Shown: positions 25,596 to 39,101 of the stretch, piece by piece
Numbering within the stretch: position 1 is the stretch's first letter
Layout of the letters: each line of letters opens with the position of its first letter
Origin: Methylococcales symbiont of Hymedesmia sp. n. MRB-2018
GTDB taxonomy: Bacteria > Pseudomonadota > Gammaproteobacteria > Methylococcales > Methylomonadaceae
Direction of reading: 5' to 3'
Assembly: GCA_003666385.1 (NCBI GenBank)
Contig: QPIN01000058.1
Span: forward strand, 1,488-65,487
Length of the DNA stretch: 64,000 bases
Notes under the pieces: model-generated
What the model was told of the DNA's origin: nothing
Seen by the model: only the letters and a program-made list of their open reading frames with translations
Databases searched by the model: none
Translations under genes and position numbers: made by a program

Positions 25596-27053
25596 TTATA
25601 GTGAACCCCATATATCATCCACTCTTTTTACTACATCTTTAGACATAGACATCGGTTTCCCCCATTCTCTATCCGTTTCACCTGGCCATTTATTAGTGGC
25701 ATCAAAACCCACTTTAGAACCTAAGCCAGAAACAGGTGAGGCAAAATCCAGATAGTCGATGGGTGTGTTTTCTAAAATAGTCAAATCGCGTGCTGGATCC
25801 ATGCGTGTAGTAATAGCCCAGATAACATCTTGCCAGTTTCTGACATTAACATCTTCATCGACCACGATGACAAATTTGGTATACATGAATTGGCGTAGAT
25901 AAGACCAGGTGCCTAACATGACTCGTTTAGCGTGACCAGCATATTGTTTTTTCATACTGATCACTGCCATGCGATAGGAACAACCTTCGGGTGGGAGATA
26001 AAAATCAATAATTTCTGGAAATTGCTTTTGCAAAATAGGGATAAACACTTCATTTAATGCCACCCCTAAAATAGCAGGCTCATCAGGGGGTCTGCCTGTA
26101 TAGGTACTGTGATATATGGGATTTTGTCTTTGTGTAATGCGTTCTATAGTAAATACAGGGAATTTATCCACTTCATTATAATAACCAGTATGGTCACCGA
26201 AAGGACCTTCTACTGCCATTTCATCAGGGTAGATAAAGCCTTCTAAGACGATTTCCGCATTGGCAGGTACTTGTAAATCATTAATCAGGCAATTGGCGAC
26301 TTCTGTTTTACTACCACGCAATAGACCAGCAAAGGCATATTCAGACAATGAATCTGGAATTGGGGTTACTGCTGCCAAAATAGTAGCTGGGTCTGCACCT
26401 AAGGCAACTGAAACAGGAAAAGGTTCGCCATGGTGTTGCTCTTGCCATTCTCTGAAATCCAGTGCTCCACCTCGATGTGCTAACCAACGCATAATGACTT
26501 TGTTTTTTGCAATTACCTGTTGACGATAAATACCCAGGTTTTGTCGGTCTTTATTAGGCCCTTGGGTGATGACCAAAGGCCATGTAATTAAAGGAGCTGC
26601 ATCACCTGGCCAGCAAGTTTGAATGGGATAAATACTTAAATCAATGTCATCGCCTTGCAAAATTACTTCTTGACAGGCTGGGTTTTTGATAACTTTAGGT
26701 GCCATATTCAATACTTTTTTGAATATCTGTACTTTTTCCAATGCGTCTTTCATACCTTTAGGCGGTTCAGGTTCTTTTAAGTAGGCCAGTAATTCACCAA
26801 TACCTCGTAATTCAGTCACCGAATCCACCCCCATCCCCGTAGCAACACGTTTAGGAGTACCAAAAAGATTGGCTAAAAGAGGAATGTTTGAGCCTTTAGG
26901 GTTTTCAAATAATAAAGCAGGGCCTTCTTCTTTTAAAGTACGATCACATATTTCAGTCATTTCCAGATAAGGGTCTATTTCAACGCTTATACGTTTAAGT
27001 TCACCTTGTTTTTCCAGCTGTTCTATAAAGTCTCGCAGGTCTTTATATTTCAT
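25596..27053 (-). CDS. ubiD: 4-hydroxy-3-polyprenylbenzoate decarboxylase
   Basis: 485-aa ORF starting [22 protein letters not shown], typical of UbiD. It overlaps prlC by 4 nt. Confidence 0.93.
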
Positions 27054-29089
27054 GTGGCAATACCCGTGTGTCTGAGTAGAGCATCAATTTCAGGTTCGCG
27101 TCCTCGGAAATCAACAAAGAGTTGCATGGCATCCTGACTACCGCCTTTTTCTAAAATTGAATGTAAAAAAGCTTTGCCGACAGTTTGGTTAAAAATACCT
27201 TTTTCTTCAAATAAGGAAAAAGCATCACTAGAAAGCACTTCTGCCCATTTGTAACTATAGTAACCAGCACCATAACCACCGGCAAAAATATGGGCAAAAC
27301 TGTGAGCAAAACGATTAAATTCGGGAGGCTGGACAACAGCTACCTGTTCTCTGATCTGATTTAAGGTTTTATAAACTTGCCCACCTTTTTTTGGGTCATA
27401 TTGTTGATGTATTCTAAAGTCAAACAAACTAAATTCAAGTTGCCTAACCATTAGCATTCCTGCTTGGAAGTTTTTTGCGTCCATCATTTTTTGAAATAAA
27501 TCATCAGGGAGTGCTTCACCCGTTTGATAATGACCAGAAATTAAAGTTAAGGCTTCTTTTTCCCAGCACCAGTTTTCCATAAATTGACTGGGTAGTTCCA
27601 CCGCATCCCATTCCACACCGTTAATGCCAGAAACACCTAAATGATCGACTTGGGTTAGTATATGTTGTAAACCGTGACCAAATTCATGGAACAAGGTAAG
27701 GACTTCATCATGTGTTAACAAGGCGGGATCATTACCAGCAGGCGGGGTAAAATTACAGCTTAAATATGCGACAGGTGTTTGAATATTTCCAGCAGACTTG
27801 TGACGACCTACGCAATCATCCATCCATGCTCCGCCGCGCTTTTTATCGCGGGCATATAAATCCAGAAAAAACTGACCACGCAATTGATTGTTTTCATCAT
27901 CTATTTGAAAAAATCGTACATCAGGATGCCAGCTATCAAAGTCAGTAATTTCAGTAATATTTAAACCATAAAGCCTTTCTACGACAGAGAATAAACCAGG
28001 GATGACAGATGTTACAGGAAAATATTCTTTTACTTGTTGCTGTGATAATTGATAAAAGTGCTGCCTCATTTTCTCTGAGAAATAAGCAATATCCCAAGCT
28101 TGAAGATTATGAATGCCGTATTGCTCTTTGGCAAAGGATTTAAGTTCTGCGAGGTCTTTACGTGCATGTCGCCAGGATTTATCAGCTAGGTTTTCTAAAA
28201 AGCCAGTAACATCTTCTGCTTTTTCAGCCATTTTTGTAAACAAAGATAATTCAGCATAATTGTTAAAGCCCAGTAATGTCGCCTTCTCATGCCTTAAAGC
28301 CAGGATTTGTTCCATCACTTGACTGTTATCCCATTGACCCTTGCCAGGCCCTTGGTCAGATGCTCGGGTTGAAAAGGCGGTATAAAGTTCTTTACGCAAT
28401 TCACGGTTATCAGCATAAGTCATAATCGCTAGATAAGAGGGGGTTTGTAGCGTGATTAACCAGCCATTCTGATTCTGACTTTTAGCAGTTTGTTTGGCTA
28501 AAGCTAATGCATCGTCTGGTAAACCTGCAAGCAGATCTTGGTCGGCGATCAGCTTACGCCAAGCGGTGGTAGCATCCAGCAAATTTTCATCATACTTACT
28601 GGATAAGGCAGATAATTGCTGATTAATTTGTTTATAACGCAATTGTTTTTCAGCTGATAAATCAATACCCGATAGACGAAAATCTCTTAAAGCATTATTG
28701 ATAATTTTTTGTTGGGATATTTCTAAAGTTGCATATTGATCACTCTCCAGAATCGTTTGATACGCTTTAAACAACTTCTGATTCTGTCCCATTTCAGTTG
28801 AATATTCACTCAGTTTGGGTAAACAGGCATTATGGGCATCTCTAAGTGCATCCGTATTGACGACTGCATTCATATGACTAATAGGAGACCACGCTTTATT
28901 TAATTTATCTTCAATTAATTCAATCGGTTCTATTAAATTTTCCCAGCTGTAATGTTGGCTGGCTTGCAGATGCTGTACTATGGTTTGACGTGCTTCAGCT
29001 AATAATGTGTCTATAGCCGTTTCAATATGTTCTGCTTTTATTTTGGAAAATTGCGGTAAAGTGGTGTTTTCAAGCAAGGGGTTATTCAT
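27050..29089 (-). CDS. prlC: Oligopeptidase A (M3 family)
   Basis: 679-aa ORF with the zinc motif [11 protein letters not shown]. Confidence 0.92.
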
Positions 29090-29132
29090 GTTTTAACGAA
29101 AATTAGTTTAAATAAAAAGGGGTGAATTCGAC

Positions 29133-29300
29133 TCATAAACGCACCACTACCAATTGACGAGAATCCACGCTCGTCATCTCTAAAAACAGCTGATAAGGTG
29201 TTTTAAATCCCAGACATTTTCTCGGTCTGGAATTTAACTTATTCACTGCTATTTTAACATCGCTTGAATTCACATCATAAGTGCAACACTCGTTAGTCGG
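29133..29300 (-). pseudogene. IS30-family transposase C-terminal remnant
   Basis: The minus strand reads ...DVKIAVNKLNSRPRKCLGFKTPYQLFLEM...*. LN.RPRK.LGFKTP is the hallmark IS30 C-terminus. A TGA closes the frame upstream. Confidence 0.6.
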
Positions 29301-29352
29301 TCAAAAGGGTATATTAACCCTTCTTAAATCCGACAAGAAAAAGGAGTGAAAA

Positions 29353-29430
29353 ATAAAAGCATATACCCATTTGACCGAAGCACAAAGACACCCTATTTAT
29401 CTTGGGTTGAATTCGCCTTTACTTATTGCG
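29353..29430 (+). pseudogene. IS30-family transposase N-terminal remnant in the opposite orientation, with its start codon decayed to ATA
   Basis: AAGGAG-tgaaaa-ATA AAA GCA TAT ACC CAT TTG ACC GAA GCA CAA AGA... gives (M)KAYTHLTEAQRHPIYLGL, the IS30 N-terminal pattern. It overlaps the 3' end of the TPR lipoprotein gene. Confidence 0.5.
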
Positions 29431-30312
29431 CGTTAGCTTACTATTATTTTTCACTTCATCTAAAATATTGGCAATTCGTTTAAGCTTCCAATCATTTTTT
29501 AGATATTCATACACAAGTTGAGAGCGGAGAAAATACTCTTGTGCCTTATTCCATTGTTGCTTAGATCTGTAATATTGACCTAATTCAAATAAAGTTCCAG
29601 CAATACCCACTCGTGATATTTGTTCTTTATATAAAAAAAGTGCTTGCTGCATTTTTAATTCAGCTTCATCTTCAACGCCTTGCTGTAATAACAAACGCGC
29701 TTGAAAACGCAATAAACGAGCGTTTCCATCCATATTTTTATTGGTCATTTTTTTCAGGGCATGTGCATATCGCCGCGTCCACAAAAACGCATTTTGATTA
29801 TTCAAAAAAGCAATTTTAGTTTGATTGGCAATAGCCGCTAATTGAATCTCATTCGGCTTTGACATCACTTGTTTACCGATAAACTCAGGTAATATTTTTT
29901 GTAATAACTGTTCAGCCTCTATCAACTCATGTTTTTGTAATGCTATCTCACTAAAAAGTAGTGATATGCGTGAATTATAGCTTTTTAATAAGTCTTTTTT
30001 TGCAAGTGCTTTTGCGGCTAATAAGTACGCCTTGCTTTTGCTGGTCTCTTGCATAGCCAGTGTCACTTCTGCCAAATTAATATAACTTAACAAACTGCCT
30101 TCTTGATTATCTATCCCTTGATAAAGGCGTAAAGCTTTTGTAAAAAGATGTTCTGCTTTATTCCATTCTGCATTATTATAAGCATACACAGCATCATTGT
30201 TGTATTCTTTAATATCAGCAATTACCATGGGTTTTCTGACAGTATTACTACTACAGGCAGCAAGCAATAAACAACTCGGTAGAAAAAATAAAAACAAGCA
30301 AACTCTATTCAT
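29419..30312 (-). CDS. TPR-repeat lipoprotein
   Basis: 297-aa ORF with a lipobox (LLLAAC|SS) and TPR-like repeats throughout. It overlaps the upstream MCE gene by 8 nt. Confidence 0.75.
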   Translation of the reverse strand: MNRVCLFLFFLPSCLLLAACSSNTVRKPMVIADIKEYNNDAVYAYNNAEWNKAEHLFTKALRLYQGIDNQEGSLLSYINLAEVTLAMQETSKSKAYLLAAKALAKKDLLKSYNSRISLLFSEIALQKHELIEAEQLLQKILPEFIGKQVMSKPNEIQLAAIANQTKIAFLNNQNAFLWTRRYAHALKKMTNKNMDGNARLLRFQARLLLQQGVEDEAELKMQQALFLYKEQISRVGIAGTLFELGQYYRSKQQWNKAQEYFLRSQLVYEYLKNDWKLKRIANILDEVKNNSKLTRNK

Positions 30313-31318
30313 GATTTGAATGCGCGGGTATTAAAACGGGTTGTGCTGTTTTATTATTTGACAAGGGCCATGTATTTTGAACACTATCGAGCAAATTATC
30401 TGTTTTAGCCAATGCACGTTTTATCTCTATCGTTGTTCCTGGTATTTCCTTTAATTCACTATTAACCAAGGTTAAGGCTTTATTTGCCTGAGCAATTATT
30501 TCATGTAGTTCTTTTACTAGGTCTGGAATACTTGTTGAAGCATTTCGCATATCATTAACAAAATAAGTTGCATCATTTACAATAGGTTCTATCTGAACCA
30601 GTCTTTGTTTTGCGACAGCTATAATACCCTCTGCTTCACTCAATATTTTAGCCCCCGATTCTACAACTACTTTTAAATCTTCTTCCACTTTCTGGTCAAA
30701 AACGGCTGCGCCTATGGTGCCGCGTCCACTTGCAATTTTCTCAATGATTGCATGAACATTGCCCAAAGTTTGTTCTAATTTTGGCAAAAGAGTATCAACT
30801 TTTCCTAATAGTTTTTTACTATCCGTTACCTGGATAAGATTAGCAAGACTGAGCAACAAGTCATTTAGAGATGCTGTTTCATTAACAGGAATGGTTGCTC
30901 CCTCTGCTAGAATGGGTGCGTCAACAGAATCAGACCTTATTTCTATTAATGCATTACCAATACTGGTTAAGCGATTAACAATGGCTCTTGCCCCTTCTCT
31001 AATTAATGTTCGGTGCTTTTGATAAATATCAATAGTCACCTGAATTTTGCCATTCTGATATAAATTCAATTTCGAGACTCTTCCAATCTCTGCCCCTAAT
31101 GTTTTAACAATAGTTCCTTCTCCTAGACCTTCACTGCTATCAACATTCAAATAAAAAGTAACTCGATTTTCAAACAAATGCTGATTTTTTACACTGACAA
31201 CAATAAAAAATAAAAATATTACAAAACCAAAAAATATAAAAAAACCAACGATTCTTTCACGAAAAGTATAGGTGGTCTGATGTATATATTGCTCTTCATT
31301 GTTAAAACCAGTACTCAT
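30305..31318 (-). CDS. MlaD/MCE-domain protein with a long C-terminal helical extension
   Basis: 337-aa ORF with an N-terminal TM anchor, an MCE domain (VTFYLNVDSSEGLGEGTIVKTLGAEIGRVSKL...) and a coiled-coil-like tail of about 190 aa. Confidence 0.82.
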   Translation of the reverse strand: MSTGFNNEEQYIHQTTYTFRERIVGFFIFFGFVIFLFFIVVSVKNQHLFENRVTFYLNVDSSEGLGEGTIVKTLGAEIGRVSKLNLYQNGKIQVTIDIYQKHRTLIREGARAIVNRLTSIGNALIEIRSDSVDAPILAEGATIPVNETASLNDLLLSLANLIQVTDSKKLLGKVDTLLPKLEQTLGNVHAIIEKIASGRGTIGAAVFDQKVEEDLKVVVESGAKILSEAEGIIAVAKQRLVQIEPIVNDATYFVNDMRNASTSIPDLVKELHEIIAQANKALTLVNSELKEIPGTTIEIKRALAKTDNLLDSVQNTWPLSNNKTAQPVLIPAHSNHE

Positions 31319-31333
31319 AAAACTATTCTCTCC

Positions 31334-32083
31334 TTATAAAATACTTACTAATTCCTGCACGATAGCATCTTCTGACTGAAGAAAAGATTTCCAGCCATTA
31401 AAATTAATCATTTTATGTTCTGCAATAAAAATAATCTGATCTGCATGGTTTTCTATAAAATGGGGATATTGAAGTCCGCCAATCATGCACACCGCTCTAT
31501 TGCGTTTATAATCACCCAATAATTCCCACATTCTTTCACGTTCTTTCGCGCCTAGATTATTTAGGGGCACTTCTAGTATCAGTAATGCAGGGTCAAGAAT
31601 CAAGGCACGTGCCAACGCAAGCTGTGCCTGTTGAAAGCTATCCAGTTGAGAAGGAAGTGCAGTAAACTCAAACTGGCAATTCATTTCAGTGAGTAATTTT
31701 TTTGCTTTATCAATGATTTCTTCAAATGGTTTGTGGGTATGATAAAGTGCAGGCAACATGACGTTCATTAACCCATGTAGTGCAGAATGTAGAGGTGCAT
31801 TGCCAGAAAAATAGCCTATTCGACAACGAAATTTCCTCCATTGCAGCTCATTCAATTCAGCTACTTCTTGCCCAAATATTGTTACCTTACCTGAAATGGG
31901 TCTTGAAATTCCTGCCAACATCCATAAATAGGCTCTTAATTGTGGACGAGAAAAGCCAACCAAACAAGATAACTGGGAAGCAGATAACACACAATCTAAA
32001 GCTGGAAACGATAATGAACTTCCTTTTGCACTAGGAATTGCCTCGCTGGACACAACGGTTTCTATACTCGACACTTCTGTCAT
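31334..32083 (-). CDS. MlaF-like ABC ATPase homologue with degenerate catalytic motifs (predicted pseudo-ATPase)
   Basis: 249-aa ORF that is collinear with MlaF. Walker A is GFSRPQLR instead of GxSGxGKT/S. The signature is LDSFQ instead of LSGGQ/M. Walker B is LLILEVP instead of hhhhDEP. No H-loop His is present. It overlaps mlaE by 4 nt. Confidence 0.7.
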   Translation of the reverse strand: MTEVSSIETVVSSEAIPSAKGSSLSFPALDCVLSASQLSCLVGFSRPQLRAYLWMLAGISRPISGKVTIFGQEVAELNELQWRKFRCRIGYFSGNAPLHSALHGLMNVMLPALYHTHKPFEEIIDKAKKLLTEMNCQFEFTALPSQLDSFQQAQLALARALILDPALLILEVPLNNLGAKERERMWELLGDYKRNRAVCMIGGLQYPHFIENHADQIIFIAEHKMINFNGWKSFLQSEDAIVQELVSIL

Positions 32084-32862
32084 AATGAAAATACTATAAA
32101 ATAGCCATCAACTATAAGTAGACAAACCAAACATCTGACCACTGCTTTTTGCATCTGCTCTGAAACTAATGTCGAAGACTTTCCCACTAAAAGTCCATGA
32201 AAGCATGCAATAGTTCCAATGATCAATCCAAAAACTACATTTTTCACAAAAAACCTTAAAACGCCATTAAAACTTATCATGCCCAATAATTCTGTTAATG
32301 ATTTTTGTGCGGAAAAATCATAAAGAAAAGCACTAAAAAAAACGCTACAAATAATCATTACGGCTGTAAAGTAAAATGCTAAACAAATTTGACTAACAAC
32401 CATACTGAGTATTCTCGGAACAACAAAATAATCATCTACATTGATTCCCATGTATTCCAAGGGTTCTATTTCCCCTCCCGCTCGTGTAGTACCTAAATCA
32501 ACGACAATCGCAGAACATGAACGCCCAACCAGAATAAACCCAGTAGTCAATGGTCCCATTTCGCTAAGAACTAGACGTGCCAGAATCTCAATAAGATCAT
32601 TATTCCCTGTCAATGACTGAATAATATAAATTAATTGTGAAGTTACCCCTATTCCTACAAAAAAAGCCAATAACGAAATAATAGCAATTGCATTAATGCC
32701 TATTAAAATAAGCTGTTCTAACACGATAAAATACACAGCACGATTCAAAACATTACGATGAGGTTGCCAAACAGCCAATGTTTGAGTCAAGAAGCAGGTC
32801 AAATCAATCATATAAAAAACAAGGCTTATACAGTGCCTACCTAACCACGCAAAAAAATTCAT
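32080..32862 (-). CDS. MlaE-like ABC transporter permease
   Basis: 260-aa polytopic ORF. Its size, position and pattern are typical of MlaE/YrbE permeases. Confidence 0.8.
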   Translation of the reverse strand: MNFFAWLGRHCISLVFYMIDLTCFLTQTLAVWQPHRNVLNRAVYFIVLEQLILIGINAIAIISLLAFFVGIGVTSQLIYIIQSLTGNNDLIEILARLVLSEMGPLTTGFILVGRSCSAIVVDLGTTRAGGEIEPLEYMGINVDDYFVVPRILSMVVSQICLAFYFTAVMIICSVFFSAFLYDFSAQKSLTELLGMISFNGVLRFFVKNVVFGLIIGTIACFHGLLVGKSSTLVSEQMQKAVVRCLVCLLIVDGYFIVFSL

Positions 32863-32912
32863 TGTCTGATCTCTGGTTCAGAATATATTAAACTGGCATC
32901 GTGAAAAACATA

Positions 32913-34952
32913 TTATCCTATTAACACTGGAATAATAGATACTAATAACAATGTACTTCCCATTGTCACCATAGGCAATAATATTTTTTCATGTCGATAC
33001 CAAAAATTGCCACCTTCCAGAGCCGCTTTTGCAGCCTCTTCATACCCTATCATTTGCCGAGTCAATAAATGGTTAAGAGCGACAGGCGGGGTCAAATATC
33101 CTAATTCAAAAGAAACTAGGGCAATCATCCAAAAGTGTACGGGATTAATACCATTAGTATAGGCAATTTGAGCAAGTGTACCTGTGACCAGTACAACGGC
33201 ACCAAATGGATCCATAATCATACCTATACCCACTAAAACAACAACTAGAAAACTTAATGTTAACCAGACAGATGAAAATGTATTAGGAATGTCATTTAAC
33301 AATCCCGAACGCTCAATGACACCTCCCATCACAAAAGAAAGAGCCATCAGCATTAATAAAGCACCAATATGGACACTGGCCTCAGATGAGGCCATTCTTA
33401 TGCTATGTTCAAAAATCAGGCTTTTTCTTTCTGCTTTGTTTTTCTGTATTGCCGAATGAATACACGACTCATAAACTATTAAACATAAAATAATAATCGG
33501 CAATATAATCGGTGCAGAAAATTCATCCATAGACACCTTTAAACAATAGTCATAAGCAAAAACTATCAAAAACACAATAGAGATATAAGGTAACAATGGA
33601 AGCAATGCCTGTATAAAAGGTTTAAAAGCCTCTTTGACTGATGCTACTCGTATCTTTTCGCATTTAGTCAACAATACAAAAAAAAGAAAAACGACAATAG
33701 TGGTCATAAAAGTTTTCAAGCCCCAGTCAAAAAGCTGGTCAGTCACCACTTCTTTATTCAATGCCGCTATCAATACAACCAATAGGCAAGGTCGTAATAC
33801 CACACCCGCACTACCTGTCATTGCAGTGGCAGCTAATGCCATTTGTCGCCTAGCACCAGCATTAATCAATTGCTCATAAACAATGCTTCCCATGGCAATA
33901 ATAATAATACCTGATGCACCTGTATACGCTGTGGGTAATGCCATGACAATAATGGCCACAACAGCTAATAACTCAGGCGATAGTCGCCAAGGTATAAAGA
34001 CATTGAACACCAATTCACCTAATTGGGTTCGTTTCAACAACATACCCACCCAAATATACAAGCCTATATTAAGAAACAATCCTGCCTGATCAATCAATAA
34101 GCTAAAAAATATGGCTAAGCCTGCCCAATGCTCTTCCATTAGGAAAAAATAATTTGCAGCAAAGCCAGCCATAAAAACATAAAGGGGAATAGACAGCAAT
34201 GCATGATAAAAACTGCCCTCTTGTTTAAACTGCTTTTTCGGATTAAATAACTGGTATAGATTAATGATGACTAATGACGAAAACCCAACAATTAATAATA
34301 AATAGACTTCTGCGTGTTCAATGATTGTGGCAGATTGGTAAATACTTTTGCTATAAAACCAGGCTGATAATAATAAACAACCATTGGCAAAACATTGTGC
34401 CAGTGTAGAAACAAGATGATCATAAGTTGTAATAACAGGCTTAAAAGCAATATGCTGTTGCTTCACCGTGCATGTTATTGCACAAATAAATAGCATTAAC
34501 AGTAAAATCATACGTTGCATTTTAAATGCATACACACTAAAAAAAGCAGTGCTGGTTTCCAATGTACGAAAAATAATTACTGGTGTTGTGATTCTGCGCT
34601 GATTTTGTTTGGCTAGCTTATGCTTGCCACTACAAATTTTCCGATTTTCTTGTAATGATTCCCTGGCCGCATCTTGATCAAAAGGTTCACTTTCAAACAG
34701 GGCTTCCAATTCATCTTGGTTAGCTGCTTGTGCTTCCAGCTTAGTTAATTGGCTTTCAATATCTGCATTAGGGTTACAAGCAGGTGTAGGAATATCTGCT
34801 CTTAGCAAAAAGTAATCCTGCCAAAAATATTCCCCCAGATGTAATAAACGGGTATGAAATTGCCCAGCATTACCAGCAATAACGACAGCCAATAAGAGAA
34901 TAAAAACAGGCAATGAGGAAGCCCATTCTTGCAAACTTCTAATCCTTAGCAT
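32913..34952 (-). CDS. TRAP-type transporter fused (DctQ-like + DctM-like) large permease with an N-terminal coiled-coil insert
   Basis: 679-aa ORF. DctM-type blocks are LPTAYTGASGIIIIAMGSIVYE, TGSAGVVLRP and GMIMDPFGAVVLVTGTLAQIAY..GINPVHFWMIALVSFELGYLTPPVALN. Confidence 0.75.
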   Translation of the reverse strand: MLRIRSLQEWASSLPVFILLLAVVIAGNAGQFHTRLLHLGEYFWQDYFLLRADIPTPACNPNADIESQLTKLEAQAANQDELEALFESEPFDQDAARESLQENRKICSGKHKLAKQNQRRITTPVIIFRTLETSTAFFSVYAFKMQRMILLLMLFICAITCTVKQQHIAFKPVITTYDHLVSTLAQCFANGCLLLSAWFYSKSIYQSATIIEHAEVYLLLIVGFSSLVIINLYQLFNPKKQFKQEGSFYHALLSIPLYVFMAGFAANYFFLMEEHWAGLAIFFSLLIDQAGLFLNIGLYIWVGMLLKRTQLGELVFNVFIPWRLSPELLAVVAIIVMALPTAYTGASGIIIIAMGSIVYEQLINAGARRQMALAATAMTGSAGVVLRPCLLVVLIAALNKEVVTDQLFDWGLKTFMTTIVVFLFFVLLTKCEKIRVASVKEAFKPFIQALLPLLPYISIVFLIVFAYDYCLKVSMDEFSAPIILPIIILCLIVYESCIHSAIQKNKAERKSLIFEHSIRMASSEASVHIGALLMLMALSFVMGGVIERSGLLNDIPNTFSSVWLTLSFLVVVLVGIGMIMDPFGAVVLVTGTLAQIAYTNGINPVHFWMIALVSFELGYLTPPVALNHLLTRQMIGYEEAAKAALEGGNFWYRHEKILLPMVTMGSTLLLVSIIPVLIG

Positions 34953-34980
34953 TTTTTCATTGTTGTTTAAATTTCCAGCT

Positions 34981-35009
34981 TATACCATTTTCAAGAATTA
35001 ATGGTATTA
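34981..35009. repeat. REP-like 29-nt palindromic unit, copy R2
   Basis: tataccattttcaagaattaatggtatta, located between the binding-protein gene and the TRAP permease gene. Confidence 0.7.
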
Positions 35010-35079
35010 AAACGGGTTTTTAGGAAAAACACCCTGCGTGAGGATACGGTAATTATTGATAACTCCATTTTGATTCAGC

Positions 35080-36093
35080 TTATTCTTTATCTGTAGCCGT
35101 ACATTCAGACTGCTGTGGCTCTTTTTTGCATCTCAGCATTCGCATCAATTTCAGCATTTTTCCATTATAAATACCTTCATCTCTTAAACGCATTCTTGAT
35201 TGCCTAAAAACCTCTCGGTAATCTGGTTTATCAGATTCAGGAATAGCAACCCAGTACTTTTCTGGAATAGTACTTTCATATTTTTTGACCGATTCCATGC
35301 CTACATCAAACCTGCTTAAAACATATTCTCGTGACTGTTGCCCATAATTTTCTGGAAACTCTGTTTTACGAATCAACATTTGCATAGTCAATTGTGCTAA
35401 AGAAAAATCAATAACACCGCCATTTGGCTCAAGCCCTTTATATAATTCCATTGCTTCATACACAATGGCAGGACCAAAAGCTACATCAACAGAACCATTA
35501 TTAAATTTACTATACATAGTTGCAATTGAACTGCCTACTGCCGAGCCACCAATAAAAGACACCATCTCCTGTTGTGCAGGGTCAGAATCCAAAATAGCAA
35601 TTCGTTTACCTGCTAATTCACCCACCGTGTCTATGCTGCGATCATTAACAAACATATAAGCCGTGCCTGCCGGACTAATCCCTACCACCTCATAAGGATC
35701 ACTCAGCATTAATTTTGCAGCTTTTTTTGAGCTCACAGTAGTTATCACCGATTTTAAATGTTGGTATGTTGGTAAAGCGCCAATCGCATCCAAACTGCCG
35801 CTAAATGAATTAAATTGTCTGGCTCTAATGCCCGTAAAAATCACCGCATCACACAAAGCTGATTTAAAATCTTCTGCTGCTACACGCTCATTAGTATAGG
35901 GTTTCAGCTCTAGCTCTACACCCCAATTTAATGCCGCTATTTTATAGTCTTTCATATAGGAAAAAACAGGGCCGTTTGCACCCAACAGGTCAAACACACA
36001 CATTTTTTTAGCTACCGCTAAAGCCGTATGACTTGATAGCATTAACAGTAGAGCTGTAAATAGCTTTGTTACTAATCTCTTATATCTATTCAT
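35080..36093 (-). CDS. Periplasmic solute-binding protein (TRAP-associated type; family tentative)
   Basis: 337-aa ORF with a signal peptide (LLLMLSSHTALA|VA). Its size and alternating pattern resemble periplasmic binding proteins, and it lies directly upstream of the TRAP permease. Confidence 0.55.
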   Translation of the reverse strand: MNRYKRLVTKLFTALLLMLSSHTALAVAKKMCVFDLLGANGPVFSYMKDYKIAALNWGVELELKPYTNERVAAEDFKSALCDAVIFTGIRARQFNSFSGSLDAIGALPTYQHLKSVITTVSSKKAAKLMLSDPYEVVGISPAGTAYMFVNDRSIDTVGELAGKRIAILDSDPAQQEMVSFIGGSAVGSSIATMYSKFNNGSVDVAFGPAIVYEAMELYKGLEPNGGVIDFSLAQLTMQMLIRKTEFPENYGQQSREYVLSRFDVGMESVKKYESTIPEKYWVAIPESDKPDYREVFRQSRMRLRDEGIYNGKMLKLMRMLRCKKEPQQSECTATDKE

Positions 36094-36548
36094 CAGTCAT
36101 TACCTTAATTTTTATTGTGAATAAAAAAATAATAGCCCAAGATTACTAAAATTGACCTTATTTATATTTCATGCCTATCAATACCCAAACCAAATGCTCT
36201 AAAGCCCTCCCATGCTGTGGAGGGTTGTCGGTCTACCACATCATTTTTTAATAGAAGTCCTATTCCAAATAAAAAATGGTTTTAACGGTTACTTTAATCA
36301 TACAAGGGTTGGGTGGGAGATTCTAAATAAACGACTCTTATTTTTTATTTTCCCCTCACCCAACCCCTTTCCTTTGGAGAGGGCTTTAAGCTCTCGCTTT
36401 GTTTGGCATTGTCCATAAGCCATGAAAACCTGTAATTATAATGTTTATACTATATTTGCTATAAATCCATAAAAAATATAAAGCTTATCAATAAGTAAGC
36501 TTAGATTTTTTATAAACGCACAATGCACAAAAATAGGCACTACATCAC

Positions 36549-36573
36549 ACCATTTATTTTTGAAAATGGTATA
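36549..36573. repeat. REP-like palindromic unit, copy R3 (opposite orientation)
   Basis: accatttatttttgaaaatggtata is approximately the reverse complement of R2. Confidence 0.6.
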
Positions 36574-36611
36574 AAATGAATCATTACAAACTTATAAGCA
36601 CCTAGGCATAA

Positions 36612-36827
36612 TTAGCACTGGAAAAAGCACAGGTCTATCCCAGTTTAGATGTCGCTACTGGACAATTGATTGGTTTTTCAGACAATACAAGATTTTCGTC
36701 AGGACTTCATTTGCATTTTGCTGCGCAACTCAATAGTGGTATGAAATTAGATTCTGTTGTTTTCAAATTTACCACTTCTGATGGCTTTGTTAATACGCCC
36801 AGTCAAGGTGATTGCTTGAAAAATTAG
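36612..36827 (+). pseudogene. Possible C-terminal remnant of an M23-type peptidase
   Basis: The frame is open with no start: ...QLIGFSDNTRFSSGLHLHFAAQLNSGMKLDSVVF... The GxxxxxxxxGxHLHF pattern is reminiscent of M23 peptidases. The resemblance is weak. Confidence 0.25.
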
Positions 36828-36875
36828 AGTTGTTTATCGGTATGCTACCGATAAATTTATTATGAGTTAATAGCT

Positions 36876-37370
36876 ATGAAATTATCAATTATTGTTGCAA
36901 TGGCGAGTAATCGAGCTATTGGTTTAAACAATAAAATGCCCTGGCATTTATCTGCGGATCTAAAAAAATTTAAAGCGATTACTATGGGCTCTCCTGTTTT
37001 AATGGGTAGAAAAACCTATGAGTCTATTGGCAGGCCATTACCAGGACGGACTAATATCATTATTAGTCGTAATCCAGACTATCAAGTTGAGAGTTGTTTG
37101 GTTTTTAATACGGTCGATAAAGCTATTGAAGCTTGTCAGCAGTATGACGAAATTTTTGTCATTGGTGGCGCGACTTTGTATCAGCTTATGTTACCTAAAG
37201 CTGATCTTCTTTATCTCACACAAATTAATAAAAGGTTTGAAGCGGATACTTGTTTTCCTGATTTTAATAAAAAAGAATGGAATGAAATAGCCAGAGAAGA
37301 GATAGAAGGGGATGAAAGTGTTGATTTTAGTTACAGTTTTATAACACTTGAAAGAAACAGTGCTGCCTAA
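36876..37370 (+). CDS. folA: Dihydrofolate reductase
   Basis: 164-aa ORF with IVAMASNRAIGLNNKMPWHL, MGRKTYESIG and VIGGATLY. Confidence 0.94.
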   Translation: MKLSIIVAMASNRAIGLNNKMPWHLSADLKKFKAITMGSPVLMGRKTYESIGRPLPGRTNIIISRNPDYQVESCLVFNTVDKAIEACQQYDEIFVIGGATLYQLMLPKADLLYLTQINKRFEADTCFPDFNKKEWNEIAREEIEGDESVDFSYSFITLERNSAA

Positions 37371-37390
37371 TTGCTGATAGATTAGACATG

Positions 37391-37429
37391 TTAATTAATA
37401 CCATTTATTCTTGGAAATGGTATTAATTA
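37391..37429. terminator. REP-like unit R4, extended to a 15-16-bp stem hairpin between the convergent folA and pqqC genes (likely a bidirectional terminator)
   Basis: ttaattaataccattt-attcttgg-aaatggtattaatta. The core is shared with R1-R3. Confidence 0.55.
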
Positions 37430-37449
37430 TACTTGGGTGCTTATGTCTT

Positions 37450-38172
37450 TTACTGCACATTAAAGTACGGTGGCATATGGTTAACATAAGCCATATATAT
37501 AGCATCTGCCATTGACCATAAAACATCGAGTTTAAACTGTAGAATTTCAACCATACGCTCTTGCTGTTGCCGTGTTTTGTACCAATCTAGGGTAATTTCC
37601 AAGCCATGTTCTACATCTCGTCTTGCTTCTGATAAGCGTTTACGAAAATAAGTATAGCCGTCCTGATCAATCCAGGGATATAACTCAGGCCAGTTGTCTA
37701 GTCGTTGCTTATGGATTTTGGGCGCAAACATTTCTGTTAAAGATGAGCTTGCTGCCTCATGCCATTCAGCTCTTCTGGCAAAATTAACATAGCTATCGAC
37801 AGCAAAGCGTACCGCAGGTAATACATGTTCTAGTGATACTATTTCTTCACGGCTTAAACCTACCGCTATGCCTAATTGTATCCAAGCTTCAATACCGCCT
37901 GGTTCATCGGGGCTACCATCATGATCAATAATGCGCCGTGTCCAGAGCGAGCGAGTTACTCGGTCAGGACAGTTGGCTAAAATATTGGCATCTTTGATTG
38001 GAATCATTAACTGGTAGTAAAAACGGTTAGCTACCCAACCTTGTAATTGTTGCTGATTTAGCTCTCCTGCATTCATCATGGTATGTATGGGATGATGAAT
38101 ATGATAAAACCGTTCCATGCCACGTAATTGCACTTCAAATTCTTCGCGAGTCCAGGGTGTTTGTTTTGTCAT
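37450..38172 (-). CDS. pqqC: Pyrroloquinoline-quinone synthase
   Basis: 240-aa ORF matching the PqqC pattern ([28 protein letters not shown]). Confidence 0.93.
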
Positions 38173-38174
38173 GG

Positions 38175-39101
38175 TTACAGTTCAATATTCATGTTGTCGA
38201 ATGATACTTCTATATCATGTTGCTTCAGTATGTCACTTTCTTTTGAATTTTCATTCAGAATAGGATTTGTGTTATTAATATGGATTAAAATTTTGCGTGG
38301 TTTCTCTAAGGTATCTAAAAATTCAATCATGCCGTCTTCACCTGACTGGGGGATATGACCAATTTCTCTGGCTAATAATGGACGACCTACAGAAGCAAGT
38401 TCGTCATCTGTCCAAAACGTACCATCCACTAATACACAATCCGCTTCGCCCATGGCTTTTTCTACATGAGGTTCTATCACGCCTAAGCCAGGAGCATAAA
38501 AAATGCTTTTACCCGTTGAAACCTGGCGAATGATCATACCGATATTATCGCCTTCATGCGGATCATTTCTGTGTGGTGAGTATGGTGGTGCTTTGCTTTT
38601 AAGGGGTAATGCAGTGAACTCAAGATCATCAATATTAGCGATAGTAAAAGATTCACCATCTAAAGGGATGGGGTGATCAATTACACCGCAAAAATGTTGT
38701 AAAATATTAAAAATTGGAAAACCCGTACTTAAATCTTGCTTGACCATGTCAGTGCAATAAATAGTCAACGGATCACCTTCTCGCAAAATAAGAAGCCCCG
38801 TTGCATGATCAATTTGGGAATCAATCATAACTATGGCTTCAATACCTGTGCCACGTACTTTGTTTTTAGGATGAATTTCTGGGAAATTTTCTAATTGTGC
38901 ACGTACATCAGGTGAGGCATTAAAAAGCACCCAGTGTTCACCATCCGAAGAAACAGCAATAGACGATTGATTTCGTGTGCTGGCTTTAATAGAACCCGAT
39001 CTTACCGCTTTGCAATTGGGACAACTGCAATTCCATTGTGGAAAACCACCGCCTGCGCCTGAACCCAAAACTCTTATTTGCATAGATTTTTTTGCCATCA
39101 A
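38175..39101 (-). CDS. pqqB: PQQ biosynthesis protein B (metallo-beta-lactamase fold)
   Basis: 308-aa ORF with [21 protein letters not shown] at the N-terminus, typical of PqqB. Confidence 0.93.

Follow-up and report, generated by a model that had tools for sequence, protein, structure and literature searches.

MCE and Mla systems are regarded as ATP-driven lipid transporters. In MlaFEDB, described from E. coli, P. aeruginosa and A. baumannii (6XBD, 7CH8, 6Z5U), an MlaE-family permease, an MlaF nucleotide-binding domain (NBD) protein and a membrane-anchored MCE protein are encoded in the order permease–NBD–MCE by overlapping or closely spaced open reading frames (ORFs). The same three kinds of protein, in the same order and with similarly tight spacing, are encoded in a 64,000-nucleotide stretch of contig QPIN01000058.1 (hereafter the window, always at its full length) from a Methylococcales symbiont of the sponge Hymedesmia sp. 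n. MRB-2018, where they lie beside genes for a tripartite ATP-independent periplasmic (TRAP) transporter. Six minus-strand genes at 29419-36093 encode an AdeT-type periplasmic binding protein (SBP), a TRAP permease, an MlaE-like permease, an MlaF-like protein in which every catalytic motif is replaced (hereafter the pseudo-ATPase), an MCE protein and a tetratricopeptide-repeat (TPR) lipoprotein. A first-pass annotation of this DNA had read the cluster, in what it took to be a methanotroph, as one hybrid envelope machine for hydrophobic or lipid cargo. The organism is a methanotroph: the pseudo-ATPase and the MCE protein are 100% identical to NCBI entries for the Methylococcales symbiont of Hymedesmia sp. 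The ORF listing agrees exactly with the gene positions and junctions of that annotation. The comparisons presented here favour, at a probability of roughly 0.6, a different reading of the cluster as two autonomous modules of envelope transport whose proximity is owed mainly to common descent in marine Methylococcales of Methylomonadaceae-type clades.

The Mla-like half of the cluster departs from MlaFEDB both in what it contains and in what it lacks. Its NBD protein (249 aa) has neither the catalytic motifs nor the C-terminal extension of MlaF, its MCE protein carries a helical tail of approximately 165 residues, and a fourth gene encodes the TPR lipoprotein. Genes for the MlaB (STAS), MlaC and MlaA components of the Mla system are missing from the cluster, with no match among the six proteins in Pfam and NCBIfam searches, and no additional Mla-like gene was found within the 64-kb window. 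Mce1 of M. smegmatis (8FED/8FEF) and PqiABC-type systems share with the window MCE protein a topology of one transmembrane helix, a single MCE domain and long C-terminal helices. The window unit has one MCE gene, presumably yielding a homohexamer, whereas Mce1 has six; its ATPase is dead, whereas MceG is active; and its lipoprotein partner is a TPR protein. In PqiABC the outer-membrane lipoprotein partner is reportedly PqiC, to which the TPR lipoprotein may be analogous.

The pseudo-ATPase matches Pfam ABC_tran at only 3.4e-6. In HMMER alignments to LolD and YtrE, Walker A reads GFSRPQLRA in place of GSSGSGKST, the signature motif LDSFQ in place of LSGGQ, and Walker B LEVP in place of ADEP. 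These replacements are not peculiar to the window, and the degenerate ATPase flagged by the first-pass annotation is a conserved trait of its 120 homologues: the Walker A lysine is leucine in 116 of them and the Q-loop glutamine is glycine in all 120, the catalytic glutamate is valine in 102/120, the D-loop aspartate has become glycine, and the H-loop region reads CMIGGLQ, without a histidine. The ratio of non-synonymous to synonymous substitution rates (dN/dS) for this gene is 0.06-0.17 over seven ortholog pairs (0.12 between the window and the symbiont of the sponge Iophon), a range shared with the genes for MlaE, the MCE protein and the TRAP components; the TPR gene gives 0.18-0.27 over ortholog pairs. 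The AlphaFold2 (AF2) model of the pseudo-ATPase is confident, with a predicted local distance difference test score (pLDDT) of 88, and its best Foldseek match is E. coli MlaF (6XBD_I, template-modelling score (TM-score) 0.87), closely followed by MceG (8FED_H, 0.86). By sequence, however, it is LolD-type ATPases that score higher. The NBD fold is kept, all catalytic motifs are gone and the gene is under purifying selection.

This family is small, with 189 database matches for the pseudo-ATPase and 138 for the MCE protein, and is found in Methylococcales only. The sole distant match (locus L162) was considered as an intermediate relative and rejected, because it is an active ATPase of the ordinary LolD type whose gene context is unrelated. 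The window protein is itself an outlier of the family: at 98 columns conserved at 90% or more it deviates 10 times (median 3), including P44F, D171E in Walker B and F174L, its median identity is the fourth lowest among 120 sequences, and its highest identity to any other family member is 65%.

Pfam and NCBIfam searches support the family calls made earlier for all six genes. The MlaE-like permease matches Pfam PF02405 at 5.2e-44; it falls under the NCBIfam family cut-offs, scoring 108.9 bits against a cut-off of 212 for TIGR00056, and is therefore not a canonical MlaE equivalog. The MCE protein matches Pfam MlaD (PF02470) at 8.5e-12 over residues 53-128. Its AF2 model places a transmembrane helix at 19-44, an MCE barrel at 52-147 (pLDDT 70-85) and helices over residues 151-315, the latter with pLDDT below 50 when modelled as a monomer. 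Foldseek ranks the Mce1 subunits of M. smegmatis first (8FED/8FEF; 306-332 aligned columns, E=2e-14), followed by MlaD cores at TM-scores of 0.75-0.85 normalised to the target, and many MCE homologues carry precomputed matches to PF28544 (Helical_needle). As full-length structural matches the Mce1 subunits rank best, and they suggest a needle that spans the periplasm, not a soluble shuttle. The natural reading of the model is that the MCE protein would form a needle-type assembly spanning the periplasm, with a putative hexameric state and geometry.

The TPR lipoprotein matches TPR_12 at 1.6e-7, and 18 of 18 aligned homologues match TPR families. Cys20, the lipobox cysteine, does not vary, and no sequence has aspartate at +2; judged from its sequence, the protein probably resides in the outer membrane. 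The first-pass annotation had likened it to TatT, the T-component of TPR-protein-associated TRAP transporters (TPATs). Neither the window protein nor any of the 18 homologues matches the TatT family PF16811. A single-sequence search of the PDB gave seven matches at E<=10, none of them TatT or BstC, and a profile built from the 18 sequences gave 99, the best 60 of which lack TatT and BstC and are kinesin-light-chain-type and other generic TPR proteins. The gene directly follows the MCE gene in 64/64 loci whose contig reaches that far, is present in all stand-alone Mla units, and was not found in any TRAP locus without Mla genes. Lacking a PF16811 match and, among the PDB matches listed, a TatT match, and travelling with the Mla genes but never with TRAP genes alone, the TPR lipoprotein was rejected as a TatT-like T-component. 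Wherever a contig allows the gene order to be read, it is MlaE–pseudo-ATPase–MCE–TPR without exception.

The TRAP half has described relatives of its own. TPAT gene order is reportedly tatT-tatP-tatQM, and the order lipoprotein–SBP–permease of AdeT-type loci other than the window mimics it. The TatT/TatP/TatQM transporter of Treponema pallidum (Tp0956-0958) likewise combines a TRAP system with an extra periplasmic lipoprotein; its membrane component is fused, as that of the window may be. Roughly 2% of TRAP systems have TatT-type T-components, whose ligands are fatty acids or sterols (PMC11713862, PMC10942540). The lipoproteins differ: the TPR lipoprotein of the window is not TatT-like by sequence and belongs to the Mla-like unit, and neither Pfam nor the PDB gives a match for the one that accompanies the AdeT-type TRAP family, a lipoprotein that the window lacks. 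The binding protein belongs to the same family, PF19582, as AdeT1 and AdeT2 of Acinetobacter baumannii, which have been discussed as efflux-related or membrane-fusion proteins (PMC7687900), whereas members of the window family have a DctM permease as partner in essentially every locus. The AdeT1/2 family has also been described as uncharacterised DctP-like TRAP binding proteins (PMC11467057). A further methanotroph system, BstABC of Methylococcus capsulatus, transports sterols with parts from unrelated transporter families, including a helical-repeat lipoprotein (PMC10942540); unlike the window cluster, it is built from an RND pump, a TatT-family protein and a PhnD-like binding protein, and the six window proteins do not match these families.

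The SBP matches AdeT1_2 (PF19582) at 1.2e-87, with DctP at 0.002 and NCBIfam TRAP_S1 at 2e-10, both under their cut-offs; its best PDB sequence matches are DctP subunits (E=0.002-0.01). In nearly all TRAP loci fetched, its gene and that of a DctM permease come as a pair. The permease matches DctM (PF06808) at 2e-13 over residues 292-643, at 50.4 bits against a cut-off of 23.8, and NCBIfam TIGR00786 at 8.9e-16, yet under that subfamily's cut-off. An exhaustive search with it gave 132 clusters (50% identity) at E<=1e-30, the strongest of them mostly full-length proteins of 670-780 aa. Its N-terminus is a membrane region of about 270 aa with a Cys-containing loop of about 80 aa. The earlier label of a fused DctQM protein thus holds for its M part, which establishes the 679-aa protein as TRAP-related; for the Q part, the N-terminal 290 aa reach only E=2.7 against DctQ (PF04290), and one homologue (P0014) scores 25.3 bits (1.5e-5), below the cut-off of 28.3. 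A DctQ-like character of this region is weakly supported by these matches.

A gene for a dedicated lipoprotein of 340-357 aa, with a lipobox and four invariant cysteines, immediately precedes the SBP gene in 65 of the loci fetched (L023:4897-5970, L040:3852-4922, L001:6007-7029 and 62 further loci) from Methylococcales, Oleiphilaceae, Ketobacter and other Pseudomonadales, and is duplicated along with the SBP gene where two SBP copies exist. The lipoprotein has no match in Pfam (E<=1), NCBIfam or a PDB profile search, and tblastn over the whole 64-kb window found no member of the family. It looks like a further, non-TatT component of the AdeT-type TRAP family. Outside Methylococcales the permease occurs almost only in hydrocarbon-degrading marine lineages, namely Oleiphilaceae, Oleiphilus, Ketobacter/Ketobacteraceae and related Pseudomonadales (loci L035-L080 of the species-representative scan), where the only conserved neighbours of the TRAP genes are the dedicated lipoprotein, an MgtE_N-like protein and chemotaxis genes, which give no pointer to a substrate. 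Some genomes hold several TRAP loci, with three each in MAAL01 and NORP220. In nine Methylococcales loci a 321-aa protein without a Pfam match recurs upstream of the TRAP genes (L001:3237-4202 in the Iophon symbiont); it has a signal peptide, an Ala/Gln-rich coiled segment and a C-terminal part that resembles a beta-barrel porin.

Conservation of the TRAP–Mla neighbourhood was surveyed from both sides. On the TRAP side, a search with the permease alignment in one genome per species returned 80 loci, in which relatives of all six proteins were located. TRAP–Mla adjacency occurs in 16 Methylococcales species genomes and in three arrangements: in 13 species the permease gene is immediately followed by the Mla-like genes, after gaps of 3 to 1775 nt; in 2 species these genes are found upstream on the same strand; and in 1 species (L025) they are upstream in divergent orientation. 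The neighbourhood is therefore not confined to the window genome, as the first-pass annotation had allowed it might be, and recurs in marine Methylococcales. In four loci (L026, L038, L135 and L137) the Mla-like unit is nested between the dedicated TRAP lipoprotein gene and the SBP gene; the nested block (L026:2868-12010, and likewise in the other three) consists of the whole unit plus a DUF3095 gene. In at least seven Methylococcales species, the fetched TRAP flanks are ample yet contain no Mla-like gene. The same is true of the Mla-like unit at the fetched TRAP loci of Oleiphilaceae, Ketobacter/Ketobacteraceae, other Pseudomonadales and Oceanospirillaceae; flanks at these loci outside Methylococcales extend up to 10 kb per side, and about 20 have approximately 10 kb on both sides.

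The converse survey used the pseudo-ATPase as marker, through a protein search, four genome look-ups and a metagenome scan. A TRAP permease adjoins in 28 of the 43 informative loci selected in this way and is unlinked in the other 15. Stand-alone Mla units are found in Methyloprofundus sedimenti and on two multi-megabase contigs of other assemblies, each in a different context, and a complete Methyloprofundus chromosome of 4.94 Mb carries both modules about 280 kb apart. M. sedimenti apparently lacks the TRAP permease, in that the pattern-based species-representative scan did not return it. These counts, together with the TRAP loci that have no Mla genes, indicate that the adjacency is real and recurrent and that it is obligatory in neither direction. 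Most linked loci share downstream genes for a prolyl aminopeptidase and ubiX, and this common housekeeping synteny implies that much of the recurrence reflects one inherited arrangement.

Comparison with the corresponding locus of the Iophon symbiont (L001) separates the modules within a pair of close relatives. Nucleotide identity is 0.95-0.98 over the SBP and permease genes and 0.58-0.80 past approximately 32925; synonymous divergence (dS) is 0.13-0.17 for the SBP and permease genes and 1.8-2.1 for the mlaE and pseudo-ATPase genes. At the amino-acid level the SBP is 97%, the permease 95%, MlaE 78% and the pseudo-ATPase 62% identical. In the alignment of the MCE protein with its Iophon counterpart (P0391), residues 1-113 hold nearly all substitutions (roughly 70% identity, read by eye), and residues 114-337 have few (roughly 97%, also read by eye). 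Because the genome-wide average nucleotide identity of the two sponge symbionts is 93.6% (PMC6474228), the TRAP genes are typical of the genome, and a segment of about 1.9 kb has been replaced by a divergent allele. The replaced segment comprises the mlaE and pseudo-ATPase genes together with the 5' third of the MCE gene, which encodes its membrane-proximal part. In MlaFEDB, the permease, the NBD and the membrane-proximal part of the MCE protein contact each other. Replacement, as a block, of the parts that would be expected to touch fits a co-adapted complex of MlaE, pseudo-ATPase and MCE protein, and the unchanged TRAP genes next door show that the TRAP proteins tolerate an Mla core that differs by 20-40%.

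Read from the SBP gene to the TPR gene, the window cluster has gaps of 127 nt and then 50 nt, followed by an overlap of 4 nt, a gap of 15 nt and an overlap of 8 nt. A terminator scan found no terminator-like site in the 50-nt gap between the TRAP permease gene and mlaE. The hairpin at 34981-35009, which the first-pass annotation had raised as a potential separator of operons, has an AU-rich stem of 8 bp with no U tail behind it, was not picked up by the scan, and lies in an intergenic region (34953-35079) that folds no better than shuffled sequence (z = -0.63). It makes a poor candidate for such a boundary, and neither internal gap holds a convincing terminator. A search for riboswitches and other regulatory RNAs over 29000-37000 returned only chance-level matches.

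In the reading that we favour, the first module would be a TRAP transporter in which the SBP delivers a solute to the DctM-containing, ion-gradient-driven permease, and whose third gene, for the Cys-rich lipoprotein upstream, would have been lost from the window locus. The second module (29419-32862) would be a four-gene MCE system restricted to Methylococcales, with the MlaE-like permease acting as a dimer and the MlaF-like subunit as a structural, non-catalytic scaffold. The helical tail of the MCE protein would probably assemble, as in Mce1 and PqiB, into a hexameric needle spanning the periplasm, which the TPR lipoprotein, probably in the outer membrane, would dock or cap. Such a unit could move a hydrophobic molecule between the membranes, or bridge them for it, without ATP hydrolysis by its own NBD. 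The comparisons show the gene content, the loss of the motifs and how widely that loss is conserved, the purifying selection, the constancy of the four-gene unit and the separability of the modules. The hexameric needle, the docking at the outer membrane, the class of substrate, the direction of transport and the independence from ATP are the parts of this scheme that we infer.

Several points weigh against this reading. The adjacency is far above chance, and with gaps of 3-50 nt in several genomes the spacing is tight enough that co-transcription is likely in the window. Proximity has outlasted three rearranged configurations, as selection for co-regulation would produce. Wherever it can be checked, genomes with the Mla-like module belong to the order that also carries the TRAP module. 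Finally, a partner ATPase may be encoded elsewhere.

These points bear on a looser, pathway-level partnership, in which two physically distinct modules would act one after the other on a shared hydrophobic cargo (crossing of the periplasm by way of the MCE needle and the TPR lipoprotein, and of the inner membrane by way of the SBP and permease, or the reverse), and in which co-regulation preserves the adjacency. We regard this as possible, if rather doubtful. The adjacency in 16 species genomes and in 28/43 informative pseudo-ATPase-selected contigs would be expected under it, as would its persistence through three arrangements, one with the Mla unit nested inside a TRAP operon, and the short gaps, including that of the window with no terminator. 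With a dead ATPase, the MCE module would also have no obvious source of energy; fatty-acid binding has been linked to TRAP systems that have lipoprotein partners (PMC11713862); and this TRAP family is found elsewhere mainly in the hydrocarbon degraders Oleiphilaceae and Ketobacter. The family nevertheless occurs without the Mla unit in most lineages, about a third of the informative Mla units are unlinked, and M. sedimenti has the unit although the species-representative permease scan returned no TRAP locus there. The Mla core was swapped while the TRAP genes stayed as they were, most linked loci amount to one inherited synteny block, and no AdeT-family binding protein has a known ligand. A further reading, in which the MlaE, pseudo-ATPase, MCE and TPR proteins make up an ATP-independent trans-envelope conduit for a hydrophobic molecule that acts in sequence with the neighbouring AdeT-type TRAP transporter of marine methanotrophs or draws its energy from it, is in our judgement unlikely.

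A true hybrid machine would go further and place all six proteins in one complex, the ion gradient of the TRAP transporter substituting for the ATPase and the TPR lipoprotein serving as a TatT-like T-component. The shared strand, the 50-nt gap without a terminator, the recurrence of the adjacency and the conservation of a catalytically dead ATPase all agree with it, but the comparison of genomes does not support an obligatory machine of this kind. Both halves are conserved where they are unlinked, as in many genomes and once on a single chromosome 280 kb apart; the TPR protein never occurs with TRAP genes alone and shows no similarity to TatT (PF16811) or, among the matches listed, to BstC; and the TRAP family has a different, dedicated lipoprotein. 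MlaE, pseudo-ATPase and MCE N-terminus diverging by 20-40% beside TRAP proteins that are 95-97% identical also fit co-adapted interfaces poorly, and we consider the hybrid improbable. The least probable account, and a very unlikely one, is that the Mla-like unit is a remnant eroding in a host-restricted symbiont and has no current function. The window pseudo-ATPase is indeed among the most divergent of its family, with its 10 deviations and low median identity. Against decay, the four ORFs are intact with conserved overlaps, the AF2 model of the pseudo-ATPase is confident, its dN/dS is like that of its neighbours, also between the window and the Iophon symbiont, and the motif replacements are conserved in 120 homologues, including that of the free-living Methyloprofundus sedimenti. 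On the strength of dN/dS and of conservation in a free-living species, this account was rejected.

Seen as two modules, the cluster cautions that a tight same-strand arrangement in one genome need not be a single machine. What seems worth following is the conserved dead-ATPase MCE unit and its recurrent link with an orphan-lipoprotein TRAP family. A conserved MlaF-like subunit without catalytic motifs bears on whether some MCE bridges act passively or borrow energy from elsewhere, a question that connects to the debate over bridges versus shuttles in lipid trafficking. The pseudo-ATPase MCE family is confined to methanotrophs that have elaborate internal membranes and unusual lipids, and since the cultivable M. 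sedimenti carries the Mla-like unit, whether it acts passively can be tested. The recurrent, non-obligatory TRAP neighbourhood in turn offers a concrete hypothesis on the handling of hydrophobic substrates; a TRAP-coupled MCE conduit, if true, would join a secondary transporter functionally to an MCE bridge, a coupling without a described precedent. The literature searched holds no description of a TRAP–Mla combination or of an MCE system with a fully degenerate NBD, and work on AdeT proteins with TRAP transporters or alkanes gave none either, which is not proof of novelty.

Coordinates of the cluster and of the features around it are collected in Table 1.

Table 1. Genes, intergenic regions and segments of the TRAP–Mla cluster, in window coordinates.
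Feature	Position	Strand	Length	Remark
AdeT-type (DctP-like) periplasmic binding protein (SBP) gene	35080-36093	-	337 aa	Pfam PF19582
SBP/permease intergenic region with AU-rich hairpin	34953-35079	-		not convincing as a terminator
TRAP permease gene, DctM-containing	32913-34952	-	679 aa	Pfam DctM
TRAP/mlaE intergenic spacer	32863-32912	-	50 nt	no terminator-like site; left edge of the swapped segment at or beside the spacer
MlaE-family permease gene, divergent from canonical MlaE	32080-32862	-	260 aa	Pfam MlaE
MlaF-like NBD protein gene (pseudo-ATPase)	31334-32083	-	249 aa	all catalytic motifs replaced
Membrane-anchored single-MCE protein gene with helical C-terminal extension	30305-31318	-	337 aa	Pfam MlaD
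TPR lipoprotein gene, fourth of the Mla-like unit	29419-30312	-	297 aa	TPR_12
Divergent-allele segment (approximate coordinates)	30980-32925	-	~1.9 kb	relative to the Iophon sponge symbiont
Intergenic region upstream of the SBP gene	36094-36875	.		synteny with the Iophon symbiont ends here

The surroundings of the window cluster are unlike those of every other fetched locus. Translations downstream of it read as oligopeptidase A-like (27050-29089) and ubiD-like (25596-27053) genes, and those upstream (36876-39101) as folA-, pqqC- and pqqB-like genes. The alignment with the Iophon locus stops at approximately 36134, just upstream of the SBP gene. At this synteny breakpoint lies a palindromic element of the form GGGTTGGGTGGGAG...CCCCTCACCCAACCCC (36292-36447), present in one copy in the window and in four partial copies in the Iophon locus, which is possibly a REP-like (repetitive extragenic palindromic) or MITE-like (miniature inverted-repeat transposable element) repeat of these symbionts.

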